From Schmidtea polychroa (taxonomy: Eukaryota), in assembly GCA_044892525.1 (NCBI GenBank), contig CM097885.1:252030001-252094000 (forward strand): a DNA stretch of 64,000 nt, in the 5' to 3' direction. The first letter of the stretch is position 1. Every line of letters begins with the position of its first letter. Below, in pieces: positions 22,108 to 61,744 of the stretch. A program made the translations under genes and the position numbers. Under the pieces are notes generated by a model, which saw only the letters and a list, made by a program, of their open reading frames with translations, had not been told where the DNA came from and searched no databases.

Positions 22108-24010
22108 TTAAATCGATTTGCATGCACAATCATATATTTTACTCCGGAATGGTAACAATTTTAAATTGGTTTCGGTGGTGTCGCACACTTTGTATGGCCT
22201 TTTAAATGGTCTTTGTAATTTCGGCGATAGACCTTTGAGAGGTTCCGGTCTGTTAAGATATACTAGATCTTCGATCTTTATGCCATGCGCATGTGCTTTT
22301 TTATCGTAGGCTTCTTTATATTTCTCTTGGTTGTGCTTTATTGTCAAACCGGCTTTAGTCCATACTGATTGCATTCTTTCTTGCATCAATACTTTATAAT
22401 CGGGTATATCCATATTTTGTGAAATTGGTGGTTGGAATTTGAGATCAATCGGCATATTATTTTTCCTTAAATACATCAAATAAATAGGGGTGTCACATGT
22501 ACTTTGATTTACTGTATTTCTGTAGGCAAATAGACACGGCTTAATGAAGTCGTCCCAATCTTTCTGTTTTCGATTCAAATATGATGAGATCATATTTATC
22601 AGTGTCCCATTAAATCGCTCCACTAATCCATCAGTTTGTGGATGATATGGTGAAGTATTCAATTTCTGCGAGTGATGCATACTTTACAACTGTTACACCA
22701 ATTTTTCATGTCTTGTTCCATTGTTGGCCAAAGTATTTCAGTTTTAATCTTGATAGCGTCTTGCGCGTTGACAAATGACCTCCCAAAGCTCCATCATGAT
22801 AATGCATCAGTAATGCGTCTTTGTGCTTGGCTGGGATAATAATTAATGCTTCGCCATTTTTCCAACATTTAAGTATTCCATTATGAATTACATATTTGCT
22901 GTTTGCATCTGTGAGTCGTTTCCAATCTTGTTTCTTTCTTATTTTGACCGCTTGTTCCATAAATTGTTTTAATTCACTATCGTTTTCCTGATAATTTTGT
23001 AGTTCAGGCATTTCATTAACAGCTTTGATTGCAGCGAATATAGTGCCTTCCAATTTTTCAGGTGTTCCTTCACTATCATTTTCTGGGATTCTTGACATAG
23101 CATCTGCATTCGCTTTAGCTTTACCTGTCCAATATTTAATATCAAAATCGTATTCTTGGAGGGCAATCGACCATCGTATTAACTTACTGGCTGAATCTCT
23201 GTGTTTCATTAACCACTGTAGTGGATTATGATCCGTATAAACAGTAAATTTTCTGCCCAATAAATATTGTTTAAAAGTAGTAATTCCATACACTAACGCT
23301 AACGTTTCCTTTTCAATAGTTGAGTAGTTTTTTCATGAGATCTCAGTGATCTGCTTGCGTATAATATTACGTGGTCCTTTTCACCTTCAAATTTTGGCCC
23401 AACACCGCGCCCAATGCAACATTGCTTGCATCCGTCAACAAGATAAATTGTTTCGTAAAATCTGGACATCGTAATATGGGAGTTGTCACTAATTTCTCTT
23501 TTAATGTATTGAAAGCGCTTTGTTGCATTAGTTCCCAAATAAATTTGTTGTTTTTCTTTAGTAACGTATTCAATGGTTGAGCGATATGAGAAAAATCTTT
23601 TATAAATTTTCTGTAATAGCTAGCTAAATCTAAAAATTGTCTGACCTCATCGGCATCTTTTGGTACTGGATACTCTTCCACTTTTTTGATATTATTTGGA
23701 TTAGTTTGTAACCCTTGCCGTAATATTATATGTTTCGATGGTTTGATTTTTAATTTTGCACTTTTGAGCTGTTTAAATACGGTTTCTGCATCTTTGAGGT
23801 GTTCTTCAAAATCATTTGAAAATATTATTATATCGTCGATATATAACAATGCATGTCGAATACCTCGTAACACATAATTCATTCCTCGTTGGAATGTAGC
23901 TGGGGCTCCTGTTAATCCAAATGGTAACACGTTAAATTCATATAGTTCTTTGCCATCAGAGAACGCAGTCTTTCCTCTATCTTTTTTTTCCCTTTCATTA
24001 TGAGCGAAAT
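22108..24010 (-). pseudogene. pol: Gypsy pol (RT-RNase H-integrase), frameshifted
   Basis: ORFs 23367-24035, 23299-23538, 22706-23293 and 22108-22680 carry the consecutive motifs. Confidence 0.9.
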
Positions 24011-24011
24011 T

Positions 24012-24948
24012 CTTCCGGATTTGATATATAACCAAACAAGAATCTGTATATTTGACATAATCAACACCTTTCTATGGAATGTGAAGATATGAATTGTGAT
24101 GAAAGAAGTGAAACCAGAGGATCCGTGTGTTTTCGGATGCAGAAATCAACTTTTTGTTGGAAAAATTAGCAGAAATAGCTGGTGTAAAAATTGAGGACAT
24201 ATTATCTGTTACAAATGCATTAAATATCGGCTGGGTAGTTGAGAGTCAAGATTCAGGATTTGATGATCAGGAAGAAACTCAAGAAACTGATGAGGAAATC
24301 TATGAACCTATAGATGAACATAAAGATACAGAAAATATTACGAATGATTGTATTGATCATGTCGTTGAAAATGTAATGAAATGCGGAGATGACGATTGTG
24401 AATGTATTAATTAATAAATTTTAGTTAATTATTTCATATATTTAATATTTCTTATATATTTATTTAAAAAATTAAACAACATAACTACTTTATATTTTAT
24501 TCAAAAATGTAGAAATTACATACAAAATAGCAACACCTGTTGCAAGTTTAATATAGTTTTTAAACTTTCTTTGATGCTCATCCATTTCCTTGGCATTTCG
24601 GGCGAGTTGATTCAATATACCCCATCCGCCATGGTGTAAACTTAGACTTGATTATCTAAAAAAATGAATATTATTAAAATATAGATTATAAAAGTATAAC
24701 TTCTTGAGACCATTGATAATAGTGTTCTGAGTCCCGTAAACCTTTTTCGATGATAATTTTCATATAAGTGAACCCTACAATTATTCGGGTCCACTTCATT
24801 TCTTCATCACATAGGCAATCGAATATTCTATTAAAATAATTTTTTTTTGTTTCAAGACAATCCGTATTCAGCATATCTTCGTAATCAATATGGTTGCCTT
24901 CAATAATTTTTTCGGTCCGATCGATCAGGAAACTGAGGCTTTCGATAA
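24012..24948. mobile_element. Internally deleted fragment of a related Polinton (inverted relative to the full copy)
   Basis: 24012-~24140 matches Polinton ~41190-41310, and ~24145-24948 matches Polinton ~40215-39430 (acidic ORF plus Bcl-2-like gene with the same intron). The copies are clearly diverged, not identical. Confidence 0.85.
24490..24948 (-). pseudogene. Bcl-2-like gene, 5'-truncated copy with a 14-bp deletion in BH2
   Basis: MKWTRIIVGFTYMK and the intron position are conserved. CCATGG[ATAGAAGCCAATGG]CGGATGG is collapsed to CCATGGCGGATGG, causing a frameshift. Confidence 0.8.
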
Positions 24949-32076: not shown

Positions 32077-32503
32077 ATGGATAAAACTGATTCATACAAA
32101 GTCGAACGACCTATTTATTCATACGAAAATCTGCATCGTGATTATATTGAAGATGAAATAACTTTTAATTTATACAAGAGCTTTAAACAAAAAATGAAAT
32201 TTAAGAATATAAATTTACAAGCTGTAATGATGCATATATTGCCATTTCCATTTCTAATGGCATCATTTTATCAAGCTAAATATTTAATTAATGACTTAAT
32301 AGCTGGAATCACAATGCTAGTTTTCCATATTCCTCAAGGTGTGTACACAATTCCCAGTAGTATTTATATTTTAATTACTTTTTATAATTTAGGAATGGCG
32401 TATGGACTTTTAGCGGGTTTACAACCAATCAATGGACTTTATGCATCATTCTTTCCGCCATTAGTTTATATTTTATTTGGCACATCCAGACATTTGTCAT
32501 TAG
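32077..32503 (+). CDS. SLC26A: SLC26 anion transporter (prestin/pendrin-like), exons 1-2 (32077-32338, 32393-32503)
   Basis: V.RPIY, DLIAGIT...HIPQ|GMAYGLLAGL.PINGLYASFFP.LVY.LFGTSRHLS is the SLC26 signature. The GT-AG phase-1 intron is 32339-32392. Confidence 0.93.
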
Positions 32504-32809
32504 GTAAATAACTTGTTTACGGTAAACATTGAATTTGCACAATTTATTAAATTTCATATTGTTAACTTGTCCAGTAATTCTTATTCTTGCGAGTAATAAT
32601 AATTAATTTTATCCAAATAAGTTAATATTTTTGCAAAATAATTTATTAATTTTTTTTGAATATTAATAATAATTTCTATAATAATCTGGCAAGAAATATT
32701 TGAAAATAATTAATAGAAAATTTATTGTTAATTTAATTAAATTAAAAATTATTTAGTATTAATTTTTTTATTAAAATTTATTATTAATGCATTTTGTAAA
32801 TTTAACAAT

Positions 32810-35400: not shown

Positions 35401-35796
35401 CTAATGGTTATAGTAAATATCATTATTACCGACCATTTGCGGCGCTTTTTTTAAATGGGTACTGCTATCACTTGGTATCAAATCAATTCGAGATATGCAA
35501 ACCTCTTCACCTTTATTACTACCTGTTACTTCTACTTTGAAGCAGTTTAGATGTAAATTATTAATAGTCAATCTTATGCCATTGAACAATCTTTTCTTTG
35601 GATTAAGATTTCTTAGCAACATGACAAATACACTAACTTTCAGTTTCAAAAAATGGTATGGCATTCTTAATGGACATAATTTATGAAGTATTTCAATAAG
35701 AAAATCAATTGTGTCATTTGGATCATTTGGATCATTTGATACCTTAGAATCAATGCTCATATAATTAGCAGTTTTATCTGATAAAATTTTCAACAT
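35401..35796 (-). mobile_element. Helitron PIF1-like helicase fragment
   Basis: EILHKLCPLRMPYHFLKLKV..FVMLLRNLNP...LFNGIRL...TGSNKGEEVCISRIDLIPSD resembles the Helitron motifs P.H.L.LK, MLLRNL, NGTRL and IPRI.L.PSD. Confidence 0.8.
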
Positions 35797-38476: not shown

Positions 38477-39072
38477 AGTAGGGTATTGTGTGGACCCGGG
38501 AACAAAGACATATGACGTCATCAATGACGTCACAAAGACATATGACGTCACAAAGACATATGACGTCATACCCCCTACCCCCGGGGGAGAGGGTATTTAA
38601 AAAAAATTTTTTTTTTAAATTTTTTTTTAAATTTCTTTTTTTTTAAATTTCTTTAAAAAAAAATTTTTTTTTAATTTATATTACGTTGCGGTATTTTAAA
38701 AATATATTACGTTGCGGTATTTTAAAATTTATATTACGTTGCGGTATTTTAAAATTTATTATATTTTAATCATTAAATATATTACGTATTTTAAAAAACT
38801 TATTTTGACGAAAAAGTTGACAAAATTAGTATTACACACAATATAGTCTATCAGACAAGATATTCTGTCACACACACACACAAGGTATAAAAAATAATAT
38901 TAGTGTCCACACACGCAACAAGTTAGTGTTCTCATCGATAGCTATTGATATATTATTATTAATCTATATACTCCGAGTCTATCCGACAAAATATTCTGTC
39001 CCCTTATGGGTACTGCTCACAAGGGTAATGGTCACGCTCAACAACTCGCAAGGGTATTATTAAACAATGTAA
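38477..39072 (+). repeat. Left terminal inverted repeat (at least 596 bp)
   Basis: Reverse complement of 53424-53973. It contains 4x TGACGTCA, CCCCCGGGGG and 3x ATATTACGTTGCGGTATTTT. Confidence 0.92.
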
Positions 39073-39382: not shown

Positions 39383-39911
39383 ATGTCGCAACCAAATTTT
39401 ATGGAAAATGTTCTAAACGGAATTGTCACCGCGAATATAGTCGACAGCCTCAATTTCCTGATCAATCGAACTGAACAAATCATTGAAGGTGAACATATCG
39501 ATTATCAGCAGATGATGGAGACGGAATCCCTGGAAACCAAGAAGTATTACTTCAATAGAATATTTCAGTGTCTTTTCGATGAAGACATGAAATGGACAAG
39601 GATAATTGTAGGATTCACCTACATGAAGATAATCATTGCAAAAGGTCAACATGACTCAGAACATTATTATCAGTGGTCTTTAGAAGTAAGATTTCTTTTA
39701 TAAGTTATATTTTAATAATATTCATTTCTAGATAATCAAGTCCAAGTTTACCCCATGGATAGAAGCCAATGGCGGATGGGGTGTATTAAATAAACTGGCC
39801 TGCAATTTTAAAGAAACTGATGAAATCAAAAGAAAAATGAAAAACTATATAAAACTTACAACTGGAGTTGTTATAATGTATATTATCTGTAGATATATGA
39901 ATAAAAATTAA
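39383..39911 (+). CDS. Polinton-encoded Bcl-2-family protein, 160 aa, two exons (39383-39685, 39732-39911)
   Basis: BH1-like LFDEDMKWTRIIVGFTY; after a 46-nt phase-0 GTAAG...TTCTAG intron comes BH2 FTPWIEANGGW and a C-terminal hydrophobic anchor LTTGVVIMYIICRY. Confidence 0.82.
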
Positions 39912-39955
39912 TGTTATTGTTTTTAATAGTATATTTAAATGAAAATAATTCAATT

Positions 39956-40282
39956 TTAAAATTTATTAACACATTCGCAATCGTCATCTCCACATTTCAT
40001 TATATTTTCAACGACATGATCAATACAATCATTCGTAATATTATCTTTAGGTTCCTCTATAGTTTCATAGATTTCGTCATCAATTTCTTGAGTTTCTTCA
40101 TGATCGGCAAATCCTGAATCTTGACTCTCAACTACCCAGCCGATATTTAGATAATATATCCTCAATTTTTACACCAGATATTTCTGATAATTTTTCCAAC
40201 AAAAAGTTGATTAATAATTCTAAATAATAGATAATTCAGTATTTAATTAATCATGTTAACCTTTTTCTGCAGTCATTTTCAT
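39956..40282 (-). pseudogene. Polinton accessory acidic protein; possible 41-nt intron (40220-40260) and a 14-nt deletion frameshift relative to the 24-kb copy
   Basis: INFLLEKL.EI.GVKIEDILS...LNIGWVVESQDSGF...CGDDDCEC is shared with 24145-24414. Confidence 0.5.
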
Positions 40283-40409: not shown

Positions 40410-40829
40410 TTAAAAAAGTTGTGAAAGTCTAGCAGACATAATTTTCCAAATTGGAGAATACACATCATTATTATCAACTTTATATCCTTGGATTGCAATT
40501 GTTATATACCAATTTTCGTTTTCTTTGAAACCGATTTCATCAAAGGAATCATAAAATCTTGCATATCTGTTGTTGAACCAGGCATGTTGATTACAAGATA
40601 GATTCGTATTCAACCGTTTGAAAACCTCATCAATAGATTTAATATCTATCATTGAAAGCGTTCCGGATAAGAATTGAAATTTAGTTGGAATTAGCTTGAT
40701 CGGTGACGCCAATTTCATATTGATTTCTTCTTTTAAAAAATACATTTTATAGTTGTGGAACATTTGAACAGGTTGTACAAGTTCTGGAACAACTTTTGGC
40801 TTTTCAGTGCTTGAAATTTTCTTTGTCAT
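40410..40829 (-). CDS. Polinton accessory protein, 139 aa, unknown function (possible OB-fold ssDNA-binding protein)
   Basis: Intact ORF with upstream TATA (GGTATAAAAA on the minus strand) and a CCAAT box. The C-terminus WYITIAIQGYKVDNNDVYSPIWKIMSARL resembles the beta-strand pattern of viral SSB OB folds. Confidence 0.6.
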   Translation of the reverse strand: MTKKISSTEKPKVVPELVQPVQMFHNYKMYFLKEEINMKLASPIKLIPTKFQFLSGTLSMIDIKSIDEVFKRLNTNLSCNQHAWFNNRYARFYDSFDEIGFKENENWYITIAIQGYKVDNNDVYSPIWKIMSARLSQLF

Positions 40830-41087: not shown

Positions 41088-41495
41088 TTATTTTGATACA
41101 ATCTGACTCGAGTGGTGATTTCTCAGAGTCTTCACCAAACACCATTCAACATATTGTTGATAACGGAAATTGCAACAGCTACATCCGAAAATGCTAGGAG
41201 CCTCTGGTTTCATTTCTTTCATCCCCCTTCCTATCTTGATATCCCATAGAAAGGTGTTTATTATATCGAATATCCAGATTCGTGTTTGTTGTATACCAAA
41301 TCCGGAATGATAGCTGGATCTCTATCTTGTAGAATTTCATTTAATTCTGGATAATAGAAGCATAATCTTTGCAGGATAATTGATTGATATTCATCTGTAA
41401 AAAATATATATTAATGTAATAATAAAAAATTTGAAATTACCATAATTTGCATGCTCTTTCATTGAGGTGATTGCGGAACTTTGTATGTTGTACAT
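41088..41495 (-). pseudogene. Polinton accessory gene, two exons (46-nt intron 41395-41440), 1-bp frameshift
   Basis: MYNIQSS...NY|DEYQSIILQRLCFYYPEL...PDLVYN continues in a shifted frame as QTRIWIFDIINTFLWDIK...FGCSCCNF. The 24-kb copy has the extra base (AACCAAAC versus AACAAAC) that restores the frame. Confidence 0.55.
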
Positions 41496-41616: not shown

Positions 41617-42081
41617 TTAATTAAGTGATAATAAAAAATCTAAAAATTCATTTCCTTCAATTATTGATTTAATTTCAGATATGATATTATCAACTATACA
41701 TTTGTAATCAATATTTTTTATTCCAAGAATTACTATCTTACCGCTAGCGAATATATTTACACACATAGGGTTATATTTTATATATCTCAAAGCTGGAAAT
41801 AATTCTGGTTCGTAAACACATGGTATTAATTTAGCCAATTCATTTAAATTACAAGAAAAACCTATATCGGAAGTTACGGTTATCGATTGTATTTCTAAAT
41901 CATAAACATTATATTCACTAGCTTTGATTATTTCCTTACACCCCATAATTCTACATTTACCAGTTTTGAAATATATTATTGGATATTTTTTACTTCTATT
42001 GATGAGTTGTTGTGGTTTCCCCATTGGAAATACCATTTTTGATACATCAGCTTTTGCCCTGTAATTTATATTTGAAAGCAT
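41617..42081 (-). CDS. Polinton-encoded TATA-binding-protein-like protein, 154 aa
   Basis: Both TBP repeats are recognisable: LSNI, IYFKTGKCRIMGCK (cf. LIFSSGKMVCTGAK), DLEIQSI..SDIGFSCNL (cf. DFKIQNM..CDVKFPIRL), YEPELFPALRY (cf. YEPELFPGLIY) and NIFASGKIVILGIK (cf. LIFVSGKVVLTGAK). Confidence 0.85.
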   Translation of the reverse strand: MLSNINYRAKADVSKMVFPMGKPQQLINRSKKYPIIYFKTGKCRIMGCKEIIKASEYNVYDLEIQSITVTSDIGFSCNLNELAKLIPCVYEPELFPALRYIKYNPMCVNIFASGKIVILGIKNIDYKCIVDNIISEIKSIIEGNEFLDFLLSLN

Positions 42082-42185
42082 TTTAATGAAATAATTATAA
42101 AAACTCTGTTATATATAGTTATTTTAAAAAGGAGTTCATTTAAATTATCAATATAAACAATAATTATATAGTTTAAATTTAAAAA

Positions 42186-42824
42186 ATGGAATTACGAAAT
42201 GATGCAGTATACCAAATCGTTGGTCCAAGTGGTAGCGGAAAAACATTATTTGTTTGTAAATTACTAAAATCAAATTTGTTCAAAACAAAATTCAACAATA
42301 TTTATTGGCATAGGGGCGCCGATGAAGAACATGGATTGACACAATCAAGTTTCTGTCAATTGAAAAACATGAAAATAGTAAAGGGTTTTGATAAAAACTG
42401 GTCAAGTCGTTTGAAGAAAGATGATGTCATCATTATCGATGATTTGTATCAAGAAGCCAATAAAGAAAAGGATTTTAATAATTTATTCACAAAAATCAGC
42501 AGACATGTTGGTGTAACAGTTATTTTCATAACACAAAATCTATTTCATCAAGGTGGTGCACATCGAACACGTAATTTAAATGTACAATATCTAGTTATTT
42601 TCAAAAATCCTAGAGATGCAACTGTCATTGATTTTCTTGGACGACAAGCATACCCTAATAACCGTAATTTTCTTATCAATGCATTTCAAGATGCTACGAA
42701 AATACCTCATGGGTATATATTTCTCGATTTCACACAACAATGTCCTGATGATATACGGGTAAAAACAGATATTTTCAACCCAAAAGGTGCCATGGTTTAT
42801 AAACAAAGTTCAAAACAAATTTGA
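42186..42824 (+). CDS. A32-like/FtsK-HerA DNA-packaging ATPase
   Basis: Walker A GPSGSGKT, Walker B IIIDD, Arg finger SRH, and ITQN; intact 212 aa. Confidence 0.93.
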   Translation: MELRNDAVYQIVGPSGSGKTLFVCKLLKSNLFKTKFNNIYWHRGADEEHGLTQSSFCQLKNMKIVKGFDKNWSSRLKKDDVIIIDDLYQEANKEKDFNNLFTKISRHVGVTVIFITQNLFHQGGAHRTRNLNVQYLVIFKNPRDATVIDFLGRQAYPNNRNFLINAFQDATKIPHGYIFLDFTQQCPDDIRVKTDIFNPKGAMVYKQSSKQI

Positions 42825-42837
42825 AAACATATAAATA

Positions 42838-43332
42838 ATGTTTTCAAAAACAAGGATATCGAGTAAAAAACAACCAAAAGTTCCACCAACAACTAGTTAT
42901 ACTCCATCTAAAGAACTTATTACAGAAAATTTTCCAGCAATGAATCTTATTTCGAAAAATCCTAAACCTAAACCTAAAAGTAAAACCACTAAGAAAGTAA
43001 AAGTTGTTAAAAATCATCGGAGTTTCCCGTTTTTCAATACATTGTTAAAAGCACCCAGTATGAAAAGAATGAATATTTTACAATCTTTTCCAAATTATGT
43101 TGTCGATGATTTACTCGATATTATACTTAAAGTAGTCAAAGGCAAGCTTAAAATCAGTAAATCTAAAAAGCAATTATTGAGTAAACATAGGAAACCTTTG
43201 CTATCATTATTAAATAATAAAAATTGTCAACAAATGAGAAAAATTATATATAAACAACAAGGGGGATTTATCGGTGCATTGATACCTTTTGCAATATCAT
43301 TATTAGGTGGAATAATAGGAAGTCGATCATAA
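42838..43332 (+). CDS. Basic virion core/membrane protein with an adenovirus pX-like C-terminus
   Basis: Lys-rich body followed by KQQGGFIGALIPFAISLLGGIIG, resembling the GG-F/I-L.LIP hydrophobic tail of adenoviral pX. Confidence 0.6.
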   Translation: MFSKTRISSKKQPKVPPTTSYTPSKELITENFPAMNLISKNPKPKPKSKTTKKVKVVKNHRSFPFFNTLLKAPSMKRMNILQSFPNYVVDDLLDIILKVVKGKLKISKSKKQLLSKHRKPLLSLLNNKNCQQMRKIIYKQQGGFIGALIPFAISLLGGIIGSRS

Positions 43333-43335
43333 ACA

Positions 43336-43512
43336 ATGGGTGCTAATCCTTCATTACCAGACATTAAATTTAATATTAAATCTTCTTGTTGTAATGGAGA
43401 AGATTTGGACGAACCCCGAAGACGAAGCCGGTTTCGGTGGAGTGGCAAAATTAAACAAAAGAGTTCCGAATTCGAAAAAGGAAACCCAGAAGTGGTTATC
43501 AGACCAGCTTGA
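43336..43512 (+). CDS. Small 58-aa putatively myristoylated ORF overprinting the integrase 5' end
   Basis: AAACAATGG context; MGANPS fits the MGxxxS N-myristoylation consensus; also KSSCC and a basic RRRSRFR. It falls below the ORF-track cutoff. Confidence 0.45.
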   Translation: MGANPSLPDIKFNIKSSCCNGEDLDEPRRRSRFRWSGKIKQKSSEFEKGNPEVVIRPA

Positions 43513-43781
43513 GTACAGTTTGAACAAACCAATGCAGAAACGATTCCCAACAAGAGTATATAAAACATATGGAATAAATGATTTATGGCAAATGGATTTG
43601 ATGGAGATGATACCTTATTCGAAAATTAACAATGGGAATAAATATATTTTAACATGTATTGATGTATTCAGTCGGTTTGCCCGAGCAATACCTGTCAAGG
43701 CAATATCTGCAGATGAAATGTCTAAAGCTGTTAATGATTTATTTAAAGATGGACATCCTAATAACTTGCAAACGGATTTAG

Positions 43782-43852
<71 letters not shown>

Positions 43853-44486
43853 TTTAGGTAAAGAATTCTACAACAGTAAAGTCAAGCAAATCCTCAATAA
43901 ATTGAAAATAAACCATTACTCGGTACATTCTCAATACAAAGCTGCTCATGTTGAAAGATTTAACAGAACATTGAGAGATAGATTAAAGAAATTATTCGTG
44001 CATCAAGGTAATAAAAAATGGGTAAATGCTTTACCGAAAATAATAACAAGTTATAATCATTCATCACATCGAGGACTGAATGGATTAAGGCCGGTTGATA
44101 TTACATCAAAAACATCATTGACTTCGAAGAAATCTGTAAAAATTACAAAACCGAAATATAAAGTCGGTGACCATGTTAGAATTAGTAAAATTAGTGCATC
44201 ACCATTTATTAAAAATTTCGATACAAATTGGAGTGATGAAGTCTTTGTAATTTCAAAAATAAATACTAGTCAGAATCCTGTAATGTATGTCATCCAAGAC
44301 AATGATAATAATATTGTACAAGGGAAATTTTATGAGCAAGAATTGCAAGTTATTCCTCCCCCAAAAGTATTTAGAATTCAAAAAATATTGAAAACTAAAA
44401 CGGTCGGCAAGGATAAACAATACTATGTCAAATGGCATGGTTATCAAAACCCGTCATGGATATCAGCAAAAGACCTAGTAAAGTAA
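43394..44486 (+). CDS. Polinton rve integrase with C-terminal chromodomain; exons 43394-43781 and 43858-44486
   Basis: DDE triad WQMD, LQTD and HVERFNRT. Splicing out the 76-nt GT-(ATT)n-TTTTTAG intron restores TDLG|KEFYN. The chromodomain is FRIQKIL...YYVKWHGY..PSWI. Confidence 0.93.
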
Positions 44487-45499
44487 ATTTTTATACTATT
44501 TTGCCTAGCAATAGTTGCCCGCTTATTCATTCAGATAATCAAGCCAGTAAATTCATGGTCAATCTCCAGAATCCGATTTCTTTAAATGGTGACTGGGAAG
44601 TTGCACTGCAAGATTTTACATTCGTGTACAACACATTCCCATTTTTTAGTCAATGTAAGATTGATTTCAAAAGGAATGCTATGAAAACATGTAGCGGTAT
44701 CTTTATTATCAGTAATTATGATAAAACATATCATATTCCGAATCAAATATTAGATTCGCATTGCTATATGTTTTACAAGGATGGATTAAATATCAGTTGT
44801 GATGTTAAACCATTTACAATAACATTCGAAACTATTGAAGATGCCAAACGAATGGGTTGCAATAAGTTGAAAAATATTGTTACGGAGACTGAGTATTTAT
44901 TACGTTTTAATCTATTTGAAGCAAACAGTGTAATGAAAGAAGAAATCAAAATATCTGTATCGTATAATGATGAAATTGAAGAATCATTTACCTTTGCTGA
45001 TGAATTATATTTTGATAAACTTGATGATTTACTTAAATATTTAAAGTTCAATTGTTCACACATATTTAAAAATTTGGAAATTGTGAAAGATTTGATGTTT
45101 ACCTTCAGTTTGAATGAGGATATTTGCGAAGTTACATTTGATAAAAATTTGTCAAATTCATTTGGATTAGATAAGCAAAAATATCGAGAAAAATCGACTG
45201 GTATACGCAAACAAAGAATACTTGAACATCATCAACAAATGTTCATATATACTAATATTATTGACCCTATAATTGTTGGTGATTCCAGTGTTCCTCTTTT
45301 GAAATCGGTATGGATTGGAAAATATGAACATGATGAAGTTGTCAATATAAATATCGATAATCCCATGTATTTACCAATAGTAAGTTCATGTATAAACAAT
45401 ATAGAAATAAATATTCGTGACGATAGTGGAAAACTTATAAACTTTCCAAAAGACTCAAAAACTCATTTGACACTACATTTTCGTAAAGTAGATGGCTAA
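44432..45499 (+). CDS. Polinton minor capsid (penton, single jelly-roll) protein
   Basis: FYTILPSNS...N.AS.F.VNL.NPI.L.GDWEVAL at the N-terminus and GD..VPLL...YLPI...I.NIEINIRD..G...F...T.LTLHFR at the C-terminus. The start may be 44456. Confidence 0.85.
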   Translation: MAWLSKPVMDISKRPSKVNFYTILPSNSCPLIHSDNQASKFMVNLQNPISLNGDWEVALQDFTFVYNTFPFFSQCKIDFKRNAMKTCSGIFIISNYDKTYHIPNQILDSHCYMFYKDGLNISCDVKPFTITFETIEDAKRMGCNKLKNIVTETEYLLRFNLFEANSVMKEEIKISVSYNDEIEESFTFADELYFDKLDDLLKYLKFNCSHIFKNLEIVKDLMFTFSLNEDICEVTFDKNLSNSFGLDKQKYREKSTGIRKQRILEHHQQMFIYTNIIDPIIVGDSSVPLLKSVWIGKYEHDEVVNINIDNPMYLPIVSSCINNIEINIRDDSGKLINFPKDSKTHLTLHFRKVDG

Positions 45500-45854
45500 T
45501 TCCGATATTATTAGTATGTATAGTGATAGCCAATCTGGCGGTGAATTACCATATTTTATTGGTAAACAGTACGGATCAGGTTGGTTAAAAACAATAGGGA
45601 GATTTGCACTTCCTATTCTTAAACGTATTGGTAGTTTTGGCATGAAAACTGCTAAAGACGTGATTATGAATGAACAGAAAATATTACCATCCCTAAAAAC
45701 AAATGCTTTAGCTGAGTTAGGGAAGGTTCTACCTGGAGTTGCTGGTATGTTTCAAAAAGATACGCCTCCAGCCACAGCTCCAAAACGTAAAAGACATGGA
45801 ATATCGCGTATAAACAAACGAATGAAAGGACATGGAACTATATTTGCAAAATGA
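45492..45854 (+). CDS. Conserved Polinton virion protein (PZ/pVI-like, amphipathic, basic C-terminus)
   Basis: SQSGGELPYFIGKQYGSGWLKTIGRFALPILKRIG; positioned between the minor and major capsid genes. Confidence 0.7.
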   Translation: MANSDIISMYSDSQSGGELPYFIGKQYGSGWLKTIGRFALPILKRIGSFGMKTAKDVIMNEQKILPSLKTNALAELGKVLPGVAGMFQKDTPPATAPKRKRHGISRINKRMKGHGTIFAK

Positions 45855-47074
45855 TTTGTGGTAAATCCGAATTATGTATATTTGATAGACCATCGCCTCA
45901 AGCTGTAATAGAATTTGGGGCATTTGAGGAAGTTTTTCCTATGAATTCAATTACTGATAGTAGAAATGATATCGAGTTTTATATTAATGGTTCGCAAACT
46001 GAATATTTAGATTTGAACGATACTTTATTGACTGTCCAGATCAAGGTTGTAGATAAAGATAGAAAAGTTTTGGATGCCAATGCAGATGTAATACCGAACA
46101 ATTTCATGTTTCATACTCTGTTTAAAGATGCAGTGTTGGGATTTAATAATATCAAGATTGAGGGCGGAAATAATACATTCATTCACAAGGCATTAATAGA
46201 AACTATTTTAAATTACAATTCTGATACTAAAAATACATGTCTTACACCTATGGGTTATGCATCAACAGATGATGAAAGAAAAAAGTGGGTTAAAGGCTCA
46301 AAATCATTCACTATGTGCTCATCATTACAACTCGATTTTATGGATCAACCGAAATATTTGCTACCAGGAGTTAATGTACACATTAGATTGAAAAGGGCCG
46401 ATTCTGCATTATCTCTTACTAGTGCAACTGGTGCACCAATATGCCAATTAGTTGATGCAAAATTATTGGTGAGAAGAGTTCGAGTAGACCCGTCAGTATT
46501 AGCTGGTCATCAATTGGGTCTTAATTCAAAACATGCAATTTATCCTTTAAAAACAAAGGAAATTGTACAATTTGCTATTGCTAAAGGTGCTTCATCATTC
46601 TATAAAGAACAAATATTTGGTGACAGAAGAATGCCTAATTTTATTCTGGTAACATTTCAAAGTGAAACGCAATATAATGGATCTTATACTGCTTCCAGCT
46701 CAATTTTCAAATATTTTGGTGTTACTTCATTGACTTTGTCGAAAAATACTGATTATAGAGAAACATATACTCAAGATTTCGAAAGCGATAATTACTGTGC
46801 GACATATATGCAGAGTATTGTTAGAAATCTGTGTTACTTAGATAAAAACTTGAATTGTGGAATTACTCTAGAAGAATTTAAAAGCAAATATCCATTTTTT
46901 ACATTTGTTTTAGCCCCTGATTTTGATTTAAATCAGAGTCAACTACCACAAAACGGAAATTCACGACTGGATATTAAGTTTGCAAAGGCCATTACAGAGC
47001 CGGTACATGTTATAATATATGGAGTATTTGAAAATGAAGTTCAAATTACTGCAAATAGAACCGTGCTAGTATAA
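45851..47074 (+). CDS. Polinton major capsid protein (double jelly-roll, PY)
   Basis: KSELCIF..P.PQ..IE...EEV.P......IEF.I.G....YLDL.DT.L at the N-terminus; QPKYLLPGVNV.IRL; intact 407 aa. Confidence 0.9.
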   Translation: MICGKSELCIFDRPSPQAVIEFGAFEEVFPMNSITDSRNDIEFYINGSQTEYLDLNDTLLTVQIKVVDKDRKVLDANADVIPNNFMFHTLFKDAVLGFNNIKIEGGNNTFIHKALIETILNYNSDTKNTCLTPMGYASTDDERKKWVKGSKSFTMCSSLQLDFMDQPKYLLPGVNVHIRLKRADSALSLTSATGAPICQLVDAKLLVRRVRVDPSVLAGHQLGLNSKHAIYPLKTKEIVQFAIAKGASSFYKEQIFGDRRMPNFILVTFQSETQYNGSYTASSSIFKYFGVTSLTLSKNTDYRETYTQDFESDNYCATYMQSIVRNLCYLDKNLNCGITLEEFKSKYPFFTFVLAPDFDLNQSQLPQNGNSRLDIKFAKAITEPVHVIIYGVFENEVQITANRTVLV

Positions 47075-47486
47075 ATGTATACAGAAACATAAAAAGTTGT
47101 CATGGAGTAAGTTGTTTTTTATACTCAGGATTTATTAAAATAGTTCTGTTCAGGTTAATCGAATTGGAAAACAAATATTAGGAAATGAATTTGTAGGTGT
47201 TTTTCCTCTCGATAAAATTCCTTATTTGAGCAATAATCAAGCCATAATCGTCAATACTCATTAGTCTCATCTTGGTGGAGAACATTGGATAGCTATATAT
47301 GTGAAACCTAGTAATATATTCGTATTCGATCCTATGGGTTTCTATTATCCTGCTTTGTTGATATCAAAACTTCAAACAATTGGGAAACCTATTGTATATA
47401 ATAAAACTATGTTTCAAAATCCATTGACTCAAACATGTGGTCAACACTGTTTGGCATGGTTGTTGTATAAAAAATTTGATGGTTAA
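47075..47486 (+). pseudogene. Adenain-like cysteine (maturation) protease, disrupted
   Basis: FVGVFPLDKIP, VNTH*SHLGGEHW, FDPMG, FQN and TCGQHC give catalytic H/D/C plus the oxyanion Q. There is an in-frame TAG at 47262-47264, a probable 47-nt intron at 47107-47153, and the 5' exon is out of frame with ATG 47075. Confidence 0.85.
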
Positions 47487-48866: not shown

Positions 48867-49037
48867 ATGGAAAGATATTATAGTCATAAATATAACGGTG
48901 TCACCTACATCCTATGCCCTAAATGTGAGGTTATTGAAGTTATAACGTATAAGGAATTTTATAATAAGCATAGACTCCATCTCCAACAATTTAAACCTTC
49001 TAAGAAGTCTCTTTTCTATAGCTTATATGAATCGTTT

Positions 49038-49113
<76 letters not shown>

Positions 49114-52100
49114 TCAACAACAAGAATAATAATAATAATATCAACAGCAATAATAATATCAACAACAATAATAATAATATCAACAACAATAATAATAATA
49201 TCACCAACAATAATACTAACAACACCAATAATAATGATATAAACGAAATAACTAAACTAAAAGATCAAGTAAATAAATTAAATGATCAAATAAATAATCT
49301 AATTAATATGAATAAAAGAAAAAATAATGAAAAAATAAATTCAATAGCAAGTAAAAAATCTAAAGTTATTGATGTTATTACAATAAGTGATGATGAAATA
49401 ATCAACATAAGTGATGATGAAATTGATAATAGTAGTAGTAGTAGTAATATTTATTATAATAATGGTAATAATAATAATTATAATAATATTAATCAAATAG
49501 GTTATGGTGTCGTAGATGTTACCAGTGATTTAAATAATAATCATATTATATTAAAAATGGACGTTTCGTCTTTAGATTTAAAAACGGTCTCTGTACCAGA
49601 CATTTTAATAAATAAATTAAAATTATATGTAAATAAATTAAAATCATGTAAAATTCAATTTTGTCTAAAGGTGGAATTTATAAAAGATGATGAGTTACAA
49701 TCTTTTGTAATCTCGAATTCCGCCCGAGTTTGGAGCGATACATTCATTGACGAAGGTATTGCTCGTTTAAATGAAAAAATAATTAAAATTAATGAGAAAG
49801 GTAGTAATTGGACTATCAATAAAATAGAATACATAAGCTTTGTTCTGACTAAATTTGCTGAAATAAGTCGGTTAAGTGGTAGAAGTTTTATTGAAACCCC
49901 AAAATCTTTAAGAAACTTAAGCTGTCTCGTTAATGTAGTTAATAATGACCACTTCTGTTTTTTGTATAGTTTCTTGTCAATTATTAAATCTGATAGTATA
50001 AATAGGCAATATAGAAATCGCCCTAATTCATACAATCTTTCTGAAATTAAATTTGATCCTAATGATATGCCGATGAAACTATCAAATATAAGTAAATTTG
50101 AACAACAAAATCCAGGTTATAGTATAAATGTTCTTACTTATGTTCTTAAATATGATAGTATAAATAGGCAATATAGAAATCGCCCTAATTCATACAATCT
50201 TTCTGAAATTAAATTTGATCCTAATGATATGCCGATGAAACTATCAAATATAAGTAAATTTGAACAACAAAATCCAGGTTATAGTATAAATGTTCTTACT
50301 TATAACGAAAAGGCTTTGATTGACATTTCCGATGAAGATGCAGTTATGAAACATCCCTTTATTGATATAATATACAGGAGTAAGATAGTAGGAGCCATAC
50401 CTATCAATTTATTATTAATTGAAAAGAATGATAATTATCATTATCTTGGAATCACAGACCTAAATAGATTCCTTAATTGTAGGAATAGTTCAATCACTCC
50501 TGTTAGGATTTGTAGTCAGTGGTGCCCTAGATGTTTAAACGGTTTTAGGGTCTTTGCGATAAAAATCAGCTTGGTACTACCTTCTACACATTGCCTAAAA
50601 ATAAATATTTAGAATTTACTGATTGGAGTAAAACAGTCACTCCTCCCTTTGTTATTTACGCTGACTTTGAGGCTATCTTACCTAAAGACACTCGCTACTT
50701 TCAACGTCATCTGCCTATTTCTGCCGGTATGCTTTTTATTAATAATTTTACGGGCGTAAAAATTTATAAGTCGTTCACCGGTTTAGATTGTGTCGATCAA
50801 TTTCTTACTGAAATTGAAATGATAGGGAAATATATTGTAACTCCTTATTATTATAAAAATTATCAAAAGAAAATGATAATTACAGAAGAGCAACAATTAA
50901 TGTTTGAAAACAGCACATCATGCTATTTGTGCAATAAGCCTTTAGTTAGTCCAGTTAGGGACCATGATCATTTTACCGGTTTATATCTCGGTGCCGCTTG
51001 TACAACTTGTAATCTGTCGAGGCAAATTAGACATACCCTTCCTGTAGTATTTCATAATTTAAAGGGTTATGATCTGCATCATATCTTGAAATTTGGCCTT
51101 TCAAAATATCATTCATGGAATATTAGTTGTATTTATACTATTCCTTAGTCTTTTTGCTAGGATTGACTCATTAACTGTTAAATTTATAGACTCTTATCAA
51201 TTTGTCAGCGAGTCTTTAAATAATGCTGTCAAAACTTTATCATCTTTACCCTTGACCGAATCAGAATTTCAGGGTACAATAATAATTGCAAAGGGGATTT
51301 TTCCTTATGATGCCGCAACTTCATTAGAGGTTTTACATAACACTCGTCAGTTACCTCCTATTTGGAAAGATGTGACTCCCGCTGAATATGAGACAGCTCA
51401 GCGAATTTGGGTTGAAACTTCATGTACTTCACTTTTCGATTACATGATGGTTTATTTAAAACTTGATGTTTTCCATTTAGCCGATTTTTTCCAGCAATTT
51501 AGAGCTAAGTCCATTGCTCATAACCGACTAGAGCCATTAAATTTCTTAGAGATTCCAGGTATGTCTTGGAATTCAGCCTTATTGACTTTAAACTCTCCAA
51601 TTGAGCTCCTCGCCGATATGGAGATGTATAACTTTTTCGAGGGCGGTATCCGTGGCGGACTAACTTTTGTAAATAAACATTATGTAAAAACAGACCCGGA
51701 TACCGCATTGCTTTACATAGATATAAATAATTTATACGGTTGGGCTTTAAGTCAACCATTACCTTGCAGTGACTTTGAATGGGTTACTGATGATAATTTA
51801 TTAAATAATATAATTGTTGAATGCACACCGACGTCAATTCACGACAAACTGGACGATCTTCCCGTTGCCGCTGAAAAGATGTGTGTACCGGGTTCGAAAA
51901 TAGAGAAGCTGTTGCTTACACATAGCCCCAAGAGGAACTACGTTCTTCATTGGAGGCTTCTACAAATATTTTTTAAATTAGGTGTTAAAATATCAAAAAC
52001 ACATAGAGCAATTAAATTTAAACAAGATAAAATTTTCAAAAATTATATTAACACAAATACGGCGTTACGAGCAGCGTCGACAAATAAACTCGATAAAAAT

Positions 52101-52985
52101 TTTTATAAATTATTAAACAACAGTCTTTATGGCAAGACTGTTGAAAATCTTAAAAAACGTATTAATTTACGTCTGTGTAATTCTTCACAGAGATTATTAA
52201 CATTCTGTTCGAAACCGACTTTTCGTAAATCCACGAAAATCGATGATGACTTGATTTCGGTTTTATTGAGGAAGGACATAGTGTGTTTGAATAGACCTAG
52301 TTACATTGGTCAAACCGTACTTGATTTATCCAAACTCAGGATGTACCAGCTGCAGTATGAAGAGTTGCAAAAATATCGCGATGAATTCAACTGCGAAATT
52401 AATATCGTTGCTGGAGACACAGATTCCTTCTTCTTGGAAATTAAACATTGTAGTCTTGACATTCTTTTACCTGCGATGATTAGAGATCAATTATTAGATA
52501 CTTCGAATTATGACCCAAATCATCCTTTATATAGTAGGAACCTTGATTCTGTCATTGGCAAATTCAAAGACGAGAATAAAGGGTTATTATATAAAGATTG
52601 GGTGTTCTTGAGACCTAAATGTTACAGTTTGATGGGTGTTGAGGAAAGTATGAAGGCTAAGGGGATAAGTATGAAAGATACTGGACTAACACATCAGTCG
52701 TATCTAGATTGTTATTTAAATGATAAAATATACACAGTCCCTCAGTTTAGAATAACGTCAAAAAATCACCAACTTTTTAGTATTAAAAATAATAAAAGAG
52801 CCTTGACATGTAGAGATGATAAGCGAAATTGGGTAGATAAAAATCAAAGTTTGGCATATGGCCATTATAGGGGCGGTGATACCGATATATTTATAGATTC
52901 AACGGAAGCTATCTCAGCAGATGATACAGATGATTTCCATGATCCAGCAGATGATAATTATTTTGGACATGATTATTTTCGATGA
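48867..52985 (+). pseudogene. polB: Protein-primed family B DNA polymerase (pPolB) with terminal-protein region; two frameshifts (about 50540-50600 and 51130-51150)
   Basis: Terminal-protein region GSNW..SGRSFI.TP..L..NV.N.D..CF; ExoI IYADFE, ExoII FHNLKGYD, ExoIII Y.KLDV; pol A YIDINNLYG, B YKLLNNSLYGK, C GDTDS; also GKFKDE and LRPKCY. Confidence 0.93.
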
Positions 52986-53423: not shown

Positions 53424-53973
53424 TTACATTGTTTAATAATACCCTTGCGAGTTGTTGAGCGTGACCAGTACCCTTGTGAGCAGTACCCATAAGGGGACAG
53501 AATATTTTGTTGGATAGACTCGGAGTATATAGATTAATAATAATATATCAATAGCTATCGATGAGAACACTAACTTGTTGCGTGTGTGGACACTAATATT
53601 ATTTTTTATACCTTGTGTGTGTGTGACAGAATATCTTGTCTGATAGACTATATTGTGTGTAATAATAATTTTGTCAACTTTTTCGTCAAAATAAGTTTTT
53701 TAAAATACGTAATATATTTAATGATTAAAATATAATAAATTTTAAAATACCGCAACGTAATATAAATTTTAAAATACCGCAACGTAATATATTTTTAAAA
53801 TACCGCAACTTAATATGAATTTTAAAATACCGCAACGTAATATAAATTTTAAAAAAAATTTAAAAAAAATTTAAAAACCCCCCCGGGGGGTAGGGGGTAT
53901 GACGTCATATGTCTTTGTGGCGTCACCGATGGCGTCATATGTCTTTGTTCCCGGGTCCACACAATACCCTACT
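53424..53973 (-). repeat. Right terminal inverted repeat (at least 550 bp, inner end in N gap)
   Basis: Reverse complement of the left TIR, with differences in tandem-unit copy number. Confidence 0.92.
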
Positions 53974-59202: not shown

Positions 59203-61744
59203 TAGGGTTTGCAAATTACCCGAAATCTTAATACCCGGGTAATCGAGTATTATTTTGTTTAAATACCCGGGTACTCGGGTACTCGAAAAAAATTATTTTA
59301 TGAATAAAAACAAAGTAAAGAACTAATTTTTAATTAATATAAACAAAAACAAAACAAATTCATTTATTCAACAAAAAACAAAGAAAAAATTAATAGTGAA
59401 ATTTCACAATACATAAGTATAAATACAAAAATAACTACAAAAATAACTAATTATTTTTATTAAAATAATATTTTAAAAATACCAATGCGTTAACAGTATC
59501 TGTGCCTAATCTATTGCGTACTTTATTAATAGTATTACTAGCAACTGAAAATACCCTCTCAGATGATGTTGATGTTGGGCTTATTGACAATAGAGCTTCA
59601 TATAAATTATTCATATTTCTACTTCTTTTGCCATCGTTTCCCTCAATAAATTTGAATTCTTTGTCAATATTAAAACTAGATGTATGATGTTTTAATTTTG
59701 TTATAGATTCGATACTTTTTTGTAAATTGTAGTGTTCAGCTTCTATACGTTCATCATCCTCTATTTCAATTTCTGACTCTTCATCAATTTCACTTTGATT
59801 ACTTCCCTCTTCTAAAAACAGCCTGTGAAACATTTGTTTTGCAAAATTCTTTGTAATAAATTTTGAAGAATAGTTTAAAAAATCATTTTCATTTTGTTTT
59901 GGAAAAGTACCATGGTGTAAGAATAATAGTAATGATATTAATTCTTTATTTCTACGTTTTTCAATTTCAATCTTCAATATTTCAAATAAATTCAGCGAAA
60001 ATTCTGTATTAATTTTCTTCAATCTTTGGAAAACGTATAACATTGTACCTTCTGCTGTCAATAAATTAGCACTGTCTTTACTCAGTTGTTCTACAGCTAA
60101 GATGGTTGGCTCAAGTGTAGTTGACACATTTTTTAAAACACTAACATAATCTTCATTAAAACATTGGAAACCAAGTTCATCTAATGCATTATTTATGCAA
60201 TTAATTAGTTTGAGGAATCTATTTATAGATTGAGCCAATGAGTTCCAACGTGTTGGTACATCTAATATCAATTTTAGTTCATGTACTTCTTGTTGTCGTA
60301 CATGTTTTAATAAAATTTCTGTTCGTATTGATGAATTTCTGAGAAATTTAATCATTTTTCTCATTTCGTATAATGCTGGTTTAATATCTGAAATTAAGAC
60401 ATGATTTTGTGAATCTTCTACAATTACTAAATTTTCGTCATCTTCTTGGTCATCTCCTTCGTCTCCACAGAAAAGCTCATCCTCATCATCTTTTTCAACA
60501 TTTGCAATATCATCTAAATTAATCTTTTTATATATAACTTTAAGTACAGCCAAATGTACAGCATGGTTATAACATAGCTGTTTCTCAGCGGTAATAAGTG
60601 AACAGTATTTTACCATCTCGCTGGCATCATCATTTGTTGAAGCAACAATATCTTTCCTTAGACTTACACCAAATTCTCTCAAAATATTTTCCACCAATTC
60701 TTTGGTTTTTTCAGCTGTACACTTTTCTGTGATTGTTACTAAGCCAAGAGCAAACTGTTGCAAATTCGATGACCGTAAATTAAAATTCAAAAATCTCCGC
60801 ATTGAAACGTCTGTCCACTCATCAACGGAAATACTAAATTTCTTCTTCAAACTTAATAATTTCTGTAATTCGTTTTTTGTTTCAACTTTTTTTTCCTCAA
60901 AAAAATCTAATATATTCTTGCGAACTGTATTGCAGCTTCTCGGCATATTATAATGGCGGCTCGCAACATATCCTCTAATTGCATCAGAATGAACAATGGC
61001 ATTGAACGAAAATCCATCCTTGGCTGCGCATTTTGATAAAATTTCATTCAAACTTTCCTTTTTTATGGAATTCGTAATTAATGAATTAGATGACTTATTT
61101 TGTTTAGATGTTGAAGCCTCAGAATTTAATTCATCAAAGTTGCTTGCATTAATAAAAATTCTGTGAAGTTTTAGATGGTTAATTAAACCAGTAGTATTTC
61201 CCCCCTTACAACTTAGTCGTGCTCCTCAATCATAGTATTTAGCTTCGCCTTTATCTATTTTTTGAAAATGATTCCATGCTTCAGACTTTCGTTTGCTCAT
61301 TTTAGCAACGGGTAAATAAAACTAAAAAAAATATATAACTTTCTGTAAAAAATAATTTATTTATTATTTATAGAAAAGAGCATACATAAAGTAGAATAAA
61401 TATAGTTTTAAATGAATTAAGATTTGACTAGTGAATTAAACCGATTTACGTTTGAAAACTGAAATCAATATAAATAAAAATCAGCTGATTTTAACTCAGT
61501 ATTGCTATTGCAATACTACCCAATATTGTCAACATTTCTTAAAATCCCTATAAGCAATAATACTCATTTTAGTTAAACTTTAAGTTTCGGAATTTTCATA
61601 TAGTGATTTAGATATTTTTTTAAATAATTTAACCGAATTTTGAATCCCGGGTACTCGATTCGAATTACCCGTGTATTAAATTACCCGTGCAACTACCGAA
61701 AATGGCGGGTATTCGAGTACTTGGGTACTTGATTGCAAACCCTA
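59203..61744 (-). mobile_element. Near-complete hAT transposon in SLC26 intron 3
   Basis: Perfect 12-bp TIRs TAGGGTTTGCAA/TTGCAAACCCTA, an 8-bp TSD ACTAGTTG/ACTAGGTG (one mismatch) and subterminal ACCCG repeats. Confidence 0.93.
59447..61300 (-). pseudogene. hAT transposase with a damaged BED finger
   Basis: ATG 61300 is in frame with the 534-aa ORF. BED reads AKYYD*G, with TGA at 61226-61228 at a Cys position. SVDEWT, TNDDA, CYNH, TRWNS and PTSTSSERVFS are intact. Confidence 0.88.

Follow-up and report, generated by a model that had tools for sequence, protein, structure and literature searches.

The window, by which we mean the whole 64-kb stretch of Schmidtea polychroa DNA analysed here, contains a 15.2-kb Polinton with terminal inverted repeats (TIRs) of ~400 bp at both ends (Table 1). 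The Polinton/Maverick hallmarks are present, namely the TIRs, a protein-primed DNA polymerase B (PolB), an rve integrase and an A32-like ATPase, in agreement with the 15-kb Polinton of the original prediction. When target-site duplications were checked, the element termini were found to sit in A/T runs. This copy is damaged in its integrase, protease and polymerase, whereas the ORF for a protein resembling TBP (TATA-binding protein) is undamaged. As had also been predicted, the TBP-like gene is transcribed divergently from the ATPase block across an AT-rich spacer of 104 bp.

Table 1. Features of the Polinton, in window coordinates
Feature	Position	Strand	Basis or remark
Left TIR	38667..39072	+	98-99% complementary to right arm
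Bcl-2-like ORF, 106 aa	39383..39703	+	Pfam Bcl-2 E 8e-4, under curated cut-off
orf139	40410..40829	-	Model pLDDT 89; often adjoins TBP gene
TBP-like gene, 154 aa; C-lobe complete, N-lobe lacking helix H1 and the greater part of H2	41617..42081	-	Pfam PF00352, model, fold searches, residue table
Canonical TATA box (TATATATA), 36 nt upstream of TBP-like start codon	42110..42117	-	Sequence
YATAAACR box, 34 nt upstream of ATPase start	42152..42159	+	Sequence
A32-like packaging ATPase, 212 aa	42186..42824	+	Pfam Pox_A32 E 2e-7
YATAAACR box in ATPase tail (codons read YKQ), 40 nt upstream of orf164	42798..42805	+	Sequence
orf164, conserved basic virion-block protein	42838..43332	+	Homologues in 23 loci
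Two YATAAACR boxes (43249, 43328), upstream of small MG-starting ORF and integrase	43249..43335	+	Sequence
rve integrase with chromodomain; disrupted by (ATT)n run near 43780-43860	43394..44486	+	Pfam rve, Chromo
Putative penton (minor capsid)	44432..45499	+	Position conserved in related elements; no Pfam match
Two YATAAAC boxes in penton tail, 101 and 56 nt upstream of orf120	45391..45443	+	Sequence
orf120, small conserved virion-block protein	45492..45854	+	Homologues in 7 loci
YATAAACR box, 42 nt upstream of major capsid start	45809..45816	+	Sequence
Putative major capsid protein, 407 aa	45851..47074	+	Size and position; no Pfam match
Putative adenain-type protease, one internal stop; start approximate	47170..47486	+	Translation
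Protein-primed DNA polymerase B, split over three frames	48867..52985	+	Pfam DNA_pol_B_2 E 7.9e-19
Right TIR	53424..53827	-	Pairs with left arm

A 28%-identical relative of the putative major capsid protein gave a weak Capsid_N match (E 0.007), and the protease is presumed to be of the adenain type from its His/Cys motif. For this copy's proteins, the Polinton signature of double jelly-roll major capsid, penton and adenain protease thus stands on size, position and motif, with no match in Pfam. Variants of the YATAAACR box lie upstream of the putative penton (GATAAAC at 44412) and the protease (TATAAAT at 47070). The top fold match of the orf139 model, a weak one, was the phage Enc34 single-stranded DNA-binding protein (SSB; E 0.028, prob 0.97); orf139 is likely an OB-fold single-stranded DNA-binding protein, and given this match it was rejected as a transcription partner. 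The polymerase gene contains a 161-bp tandem duplication (49981-50303). The beginning of the integrase gene is overlapped, in a different frame, by a small ORF starting with MG (43337-43441, +); similar sequences occur at four other loci (L037, L041, L074 and L101), three of them with a box 22-34 nt upstream, and this small ORF possibly encodes a myristoylated virion peptide. A PHROGs search with eight proteins gave no match. The Bcl-2-like ORF has a CCAAT plus TATA-like promoter in front and is 42-98% identical between subfamilies; adintoviruses, too, have been noted to carry Bcl2 homologues (PMC8502044).

Elsewhere in the window, part of the left arm of the element recurs in inverted orientation (24013-24945); this copy is 77-83% identical to 39441-40212 and 41179-41307 and adjoins Gypsy-type remnants (22108-23882). 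The window also holds a parvovirus NS1-like helicase fragment (533-1141, -; Pfam E 4.5e-14), a hAT transposase (59447-60946, -), a Pif1 2B-domain fragment (35401-35796, -) and a sulfate permease exon (32077-32511, +).

The TBP-like protein and its family

PF00352 matched only residues 62-125 of the TBP-like ORF, which correspond to the C-terminal repeat (E 3.9e-15), and the N-terminal repeat was supported when profiles of the two halves were compared with each other (hhalign prob 81, E 1e-5). All 35 sequence matches in the PDB were TBPs, the ESM Atlas returned only TBP clusters, and PF00352 was matched by 71/71 aligned family members. A structure model built from the 71-sequence alignment (pLDDT 95.5) aligned with solved TBPs over both lobes (141/154 residues, Z 12.7, rmsd 2.4; Foldseek E 2e-9), with identities in the fold matches of 22-32% for cellular TBPs and 8-22% for giant-virus TBP-like models (BFVD). 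On the sequence matches and the model, the intact 154-aa ORF is a TBP-fold protein with both repeats, as the original prediction had claimed. The shortened first repeat was likewise borne out, since helix H1 of the modelled N-lobe is missing and H2 is reduced to ~4 residues, and so were the three intercalating phenylalanines (IYF38, ELF95 and NIF111), the counterparts of F116, F190 and F207 in yeast. The remaining one, yeast F99, is lost in the window protein.

In the 781-Mb genome, all 150 scored matches to the gene were intact at 97-100% identity, a figure biased upward because these were the best-scoring 150 of 4134 candidates. A fairer sample of 20 loci, chosen by the ATPase alone and hand-picked for variety from 150 listed, carried the TBP gene in 20/20 cases at 55-97% identity, some of the copies being broken. 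The dN/dS of the window copy against other subfamilies was 0.14-0.22, and that of all between-subfamily pairs 0.13-0.32; values were 0.28-0.76 among near-identical copies, broken ones included, and had a median of 0.18 among metagenomic pairs (32 unsaturated of 66). The TBP-like gene is under purifying selection.

Protein searches yielded 98 of 121 candidates and, in a second search, 150 among the matches listed of 1229. We kept 80 of 122 metagenomic loci, comprising 38 with a core Polinton gene, 13 with orf139 only and 29 with neither; 25 of these last were under 2.3 kb and one was a cellular TBP. In a quick unrooted tree of a subset (78 rows), 44 family rows stood apart from 34 cellular-type rows on a long branch (SH-aLRT 100), the short TBP-like forms making one 99-supported group with the full-length forms mostly outside it; two of the 44 family rows had carried a wrong cellular label beforehand. 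When viral contigs were scanned with the TBP alignment, one of 36 stretches held a two-repeat TBP outside the family. The 158 relatives make up a single clade, which is present in metagenomic Polintons. The phylogeny called for in the original prediction thus separated the family from cellular TBPs, in a tree from which giant-virus TBPs are almost absent.

Both outcomes that the original prediction had named as fatal, the lack of a TBP fold and the absence of the gene from other copies, ran contrary to what was found. The idea that a host TBP was captured just once and is now decaying has in its favour that single copies do decay, with stops in 2/11 copies compared, but it is refuted by the family-wide conservation, by dN/dS values of ~0.2 and by the clade apart from cellular TBPs, and retains virtually no probability. 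Another claim, that the head-to-head layout is a key feature, fared less well. This layout is fixed in the Schmidtea genome (20/20 and 29/30 loci); among the 27 metagenomic contigs carrying both TBP and ATPase, however, 24 had the genes co-oriented with the ATPase downstream, two were divergent and one had another arrangement. The head-to-head layout is therefore not the functional core, and we rejected it as such.

Residues were compared between 158 family proteins (125-240 aa, those of 239 retrieved that an N-lobe profile selected) and 44 cellular-type proteins, with yeast numbering transferred via a canonical TBP aligned to PDB 1rm1. Three intercalating phenylalanines are kept (F116 in 157/158, F190 in 158/158 and F207 in 157/158), whereas the F99 position is F in only 1/147 family rows. 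The glutamates E186 and E188, which contact TFIIB and are only ~40% conserved in viral TBPs (PMC7221094), are kept in 150/158 and 156/158, respectively. N69 is kept in 139/158, and its partner N159 is S or T in 157/158; with N159 and one intercalating phenylalanine lost, DNA bending may be weak. On the DNA face, the changes (of 158) are V71 to N (136), V122 to R (157) and T124 to M (157) in the N-lobe, and further V161 to T/S (156), I194 to R (141), V203 to C (144) and L205 to N (157). Positions 71, 122, 194 and 205, part of a hydrophobic DNA face in cellular TBP, are thus polar or charged in the family, and the new residues N6, R44, M46, R99 and N109 (window protein numbering) are near-invariant. 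The changes include 194, 203 and 205, the three sites that define TBPm3, a mutant with altered specificity (PMC1636458).

The span from G125 to N159 is 19-26 residues in most family members, compared with 34-35, and yeast positions 137, 138 and 145 of the H2 basic patch are gapped in 134-142 of 156 rows. This N-lobe patch is the binding surface of TFIIA, TAF1, Mot1 and Brf (PMC7221094). Basal family members retain a helix-length segment in the N-lobe; the helix loss belongs to the window subclade.

The YATAAACR box

We searched 120 nt upstream of genes, after removal of near-duplicates, for the box; expected counts came from shuffling for 11 gene classes and from a simpler block shuffle for the others, and the upstream regions counted are not phylogenetically independent. 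YATAAAC was found upstream of the ATPase in 21/22 regions (28 before duplicate removal; 1.1 expected) and of the capsid in 10/10 (0.3 expected), as well as of orf120 (7/7), penton (12/15), integrase (13/16), orf164 (17/20), protease (4/6) and PLA2-like genes (8/9), each with fewer than 1.2 expected. Upstream of the TBP gene it occurred in 1/59 (2.3 expected), of SSB-like genes in 2/18 and of the polymerase in 1/6. The box was present in 7/8 subfamily ATPase-TBP spacers of the Schmidtea genome. Canonical TATAWAWR preceded the TBP gene in 22/59 cases (6-8 expected) and was also above chance before the ATPase (7/22; 2.9 expected) and orf164 (9/20; 1.9 expected). A conserved ORF of ~160 aa with a DFE..L.EL motif (L060, L064, L068, L069, L073, L039 and L089), which we take to be exonuclease-like, has no Pfam match, carries the box in 8/10 cases and often lies before the TBP gene; a leucine-rich-repeat gene occurs in L068 and L075.

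At position 8 of the box, 97% of 107 sites have A or G, and 80% have A. Boxes that fall within an upstream gene are retained in varying reading frames, and their C at position 7 persists at synonymous sites too. The motif codons were found at 20/20 (ATPase tails, with the box before orf164), 7/7 and 7/7 in-gene boxes, with per-case chances of 0.45, 0.19 and 0.08; rows without the peptide (two and eight) were set aside for this count and the remaining rows are related. Strand ratios were 16:0, 10:0 and 10:0 in three elements, 7:4, 13:3 and 15:3 in three others and 10:3 in the window element, compared with 12:12 in the host flank (48.8 kb). ATPase boxes mostly lie 32-53 nt before the ATG. The typical distance from box to start at virion, packaging and integrase genes is ~36 nt, equal to that at which the TBP gene has its canonical TATA. 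Some boxes are a mere 7-11 nt from the called ATG, too near for an element at -30 if that ATG, and not one further on, is the true start; the ATPase start was probably called too early where the box sits closer.

The box could have another reader, such as host Forkhead or a different element protein, with the TBP-fold protein doing some other DNA job, for example origin or genome binding. Its commonest form ends in TAAACA, which matches the Forkhead core, and orf164 and orf120 also co-occur with it. The box is, however, strand-specific and its spacing to the ATG is TATA-like, as expected of a core-promoter element, and under another reader the TFIIB-contact glutamates would be superfluous, making this explanation quite unlikely compared with reading by the TBP-like protein.

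A second Polinton family of the Schmidtea genome, found via a Pfam capsid search (PF21738, 126 scored of 2527 candidates), carries capsid, ATPase and integrase genes, and its polymerase is 27-29% identical to that of the TBP-bearing family. Of ten loci retrieved, six were examined further, five of them TIR-bounded (12.6-15.2 kb) and one an inverted duplication (L172-L193, including G000:C1:29422376-29436364 and C3:29602285-29617531). No TBP was found in this family by three profiles (window control E 3e-21), and YATAAAC was found in 0/49 upstream regions (2.0 expected). The box can therefore be put down neither to the base composition of the host nor to a signal common to all Polintons. The TBP/box link is nevertheless a single contrast with a distant lineage, and the pattern would look alike under any cause specific to a lineage; no closer TBP-less relative was found among 103 and 109 viral-contig stretches retrieved with the ATPase and capsid alignments. 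In this second family the integrase is fused to a PLA2-like domain, and there is an adenovirus pX-like ORF. Its gene starts show a T-rich run with T-A(n)-ATG at its end, which either resembles the poxvirus late TAAATG or is simply a strong context for starting.

These starts bear on a further alternative, in which the box is a start-site motif of a helper-virus polymerase and the TBP-like protein works with the helper machinery. Virophages share promoters with their helper virus. The boxes 7-11 nt before the ATG would suit such a motif, as would the fact that viral TBPs are mostly paired with a viral TFIIB (PMC7221094). Against this, most ATPase boxes lie 32-53 nt upstream; the stirrup is host-like, with E186/E188 conserved at 95-99% compared with ~40% in viral TBPs (PMC7221094); and the AT-rich motif flush with the ATG, T-A(2-6)-ATG, belongs to the TBP-less family (42/49 starts, compared with 28/176 in the TBP family). 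We consider a helper-virus start-site motif very unlikely, and reading of the box by the TBP-like protein with host factors remains the preferred explanation.

A candidate late-gene switch

On the sequences and the structure model, we consider it probable that the TBP-like protein binds YATAAACR at the virion, packaging and integrase genes and recruits TFIIB and Pol II of the host, so that this one protein would serve as a late-gene switch. Host TBP would read the canonical TATA ahead of the TBP-like gene, so that the protein would be made early. It would then bind YATAAACR, in which C takes the place of A/T at position 7, with a predicted preference for this box over TATAAAAG or random DNA. 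The retained stirrup glutamates would contact TFIIB of the host, proposed as partner because the element encodes none, and the loss of H2 would free the protein from Mot1, TAF1, TFIIA and Brf, rivals for that surface. The genes with the box would then be the late genes. TBP is known to kink DNA at steps 1/2 and 7/8 (PMC1935006, PMC10005294). The N-lobe of TBP covers the 3' half of a TATA box. If the same holds here, the lost F99 and the new R44 would lie over C at position 7, and R99, C107 and N109 over Y at position 1.

Alternatively, host TBP might read YATAAACR as a weak TATA, and the element protein might act as decoy or repressor, either by sequestering TFIIB or by blocking promoters. C at position 7 can be tolerated, as the C(-25) variant was solved with wild-type TBP (1qn3) and a plant assay of TATAAAcg still gave 27% activity (PMC10005294), and a decoy would fit a protein whose TFIIB stirrup is its best-kept surface and which has lost F99 and N159. 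However, a pure decoy needs no near-invariant new residues on its DNA face, and with host TBP as the reader canonical variants should substitute freely, whereas the C is retained even where synonymous change is open to it. This explanation is unlikely. The original prediction had offered reprogramming of host Pol II initiation, for example at late-gene promoters, or a decoy; the late-promoter branch is backed by the conservation, the selection, the rewired DNA face and the box, and the decoy branch is the less likely one.

With regard to the TFIIB partner of the proposed switch, a TFIIB profile (control E 4e-46) found none in the window element or in 79 loci, many of them partial, where a very divergent TFIIB could escape. 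When the TBP-like protein was modelled in complex with the core of a TFIIB (P0255, which is 92% identical to a host TFIIB exon) from the two proteins alone, the score was 0.25 against a mark of 0.34, which speaks neither for nor against the pairing. The host genome carries at least 13 intronless, divergent TFIIB-like genes (301 aa in the two read) in clusters at G000:C1:23.85-24.19 Mb and C3:38.2-39.1 Mb (L160, L161); three cluster loci checked were without adjoining TBP-family virion genes, and these clusters could be the real partner pool for the divergent TBPs. Two near-identical TFIIB-family genes lie 47 kb apart at G000:C1:8374163-8424253 (L152-L155) and by their motifs presumably encode Brf1.

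The closest relatives by sequence and structure are cellular TBP and its paralogues (TRF2/TBPL1), which share the two-lobe saddle, the YEPELFP stirrup and F116/F190/F207; the Polinton protein differs from cellular TBP by the loss of F99, eight altered DNA-face positions and, in the window subclade, deletion of the N-lobe helices. The herpesvirus TBP mimics (KSHV ORF24, EBV BcRF1 and HCMV UL87) likewise combine a nuclear DNA virus, a TBP fold and a polar DNA face with a non-canonical TATA-like box at structural genes and host Pol II (PMC12529657), although their late promoters carry TATTWAA rather than YATAAACR and use of Pol II is a prediction in the Polinton. ORF24 has 752 aa, keeps four phenylalanines, lacks the TFIIB glutamates and acts with five partner proteins (PMC12529657), whereas the Polinton protein is a single domain of 154 aa with three phenylalanines, both glutamates and no partner gene found. 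It would thus work like the herpesvirus mimics but is not a member of that group, as it lacks the extra domains and keeps the stirrup. TBP-like proteins of Nucleocytoviricota show the same fold and the same loss of the N-lobe regulator surface, but mostly come with their own TFIIB and a variable stirrup (~40% conserved) (PMC7221094), whereas the Polinton has neither a TFIIB nor an RNA polymerase gene.

Among Polinton-like elements, the MELD virus maps of Starrett et al. 2021 (PMC8502044) include a gene labelled 'TBP' in a midsize linear dsDNA element with an adintovirus-like PolB; the bare abbreviation stands in the Fig. 5 legend (in a section on non-animal datasets) and in preprint legends, with no accompanying word on family, residues or promoter, and the labelled gene may or may not belong to the Polinton TBP family. 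Some polintoviruses carry another transcription factor gene, VLTF3, which belongs to a different, giant-virus-type protein family and for which the available part of PMC11131425 gives no promoter link. Neither 'TATA' nor 'TFIID' occurs in the available text of that paper or of 10.64898/2026.06.19.733378, and searches of the open-access Polinton, Maverick and adintovirus literature showed no description of the TBP family or the box beyond the bare 'TBP' label.

In planarians, piRNAs silence Polintons, which become open as cells differentiate (PMC8532177), and no Polinton virions had been observed as of a 2026 preprint (10.64898/2026.06.19.733378). The TBP/box pair bears on how Polintons control their genes and on whether they are self-sufficient as viruses. 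The YATAAACR box marks gene starts in TBP-bearing Polintons, and an autonomous virus of the nucleus that runs a late programme would need just such a combination of a dedicated TBP and a dedicated box at its virion genes. We lean slightly towards the broader view that one entire lineage of animal Polintons runs an autonomous early/late cascade with a minimal switch, in which one orthogonal TBP reads its own box, uses host TFIIB and ignores the regulators of host TBP, and from which the sister group differs in promoter logic. If true, this system of one small protein and an 8-bp site would be a third and far simpler solution than the six-protein complex of herpesviruses and the TBP-TFIIB pair of giant viruses; it would also represent a natural altered-specificity TBP and might provide an orthogonal TBP/promoter pair for synthetic biology.
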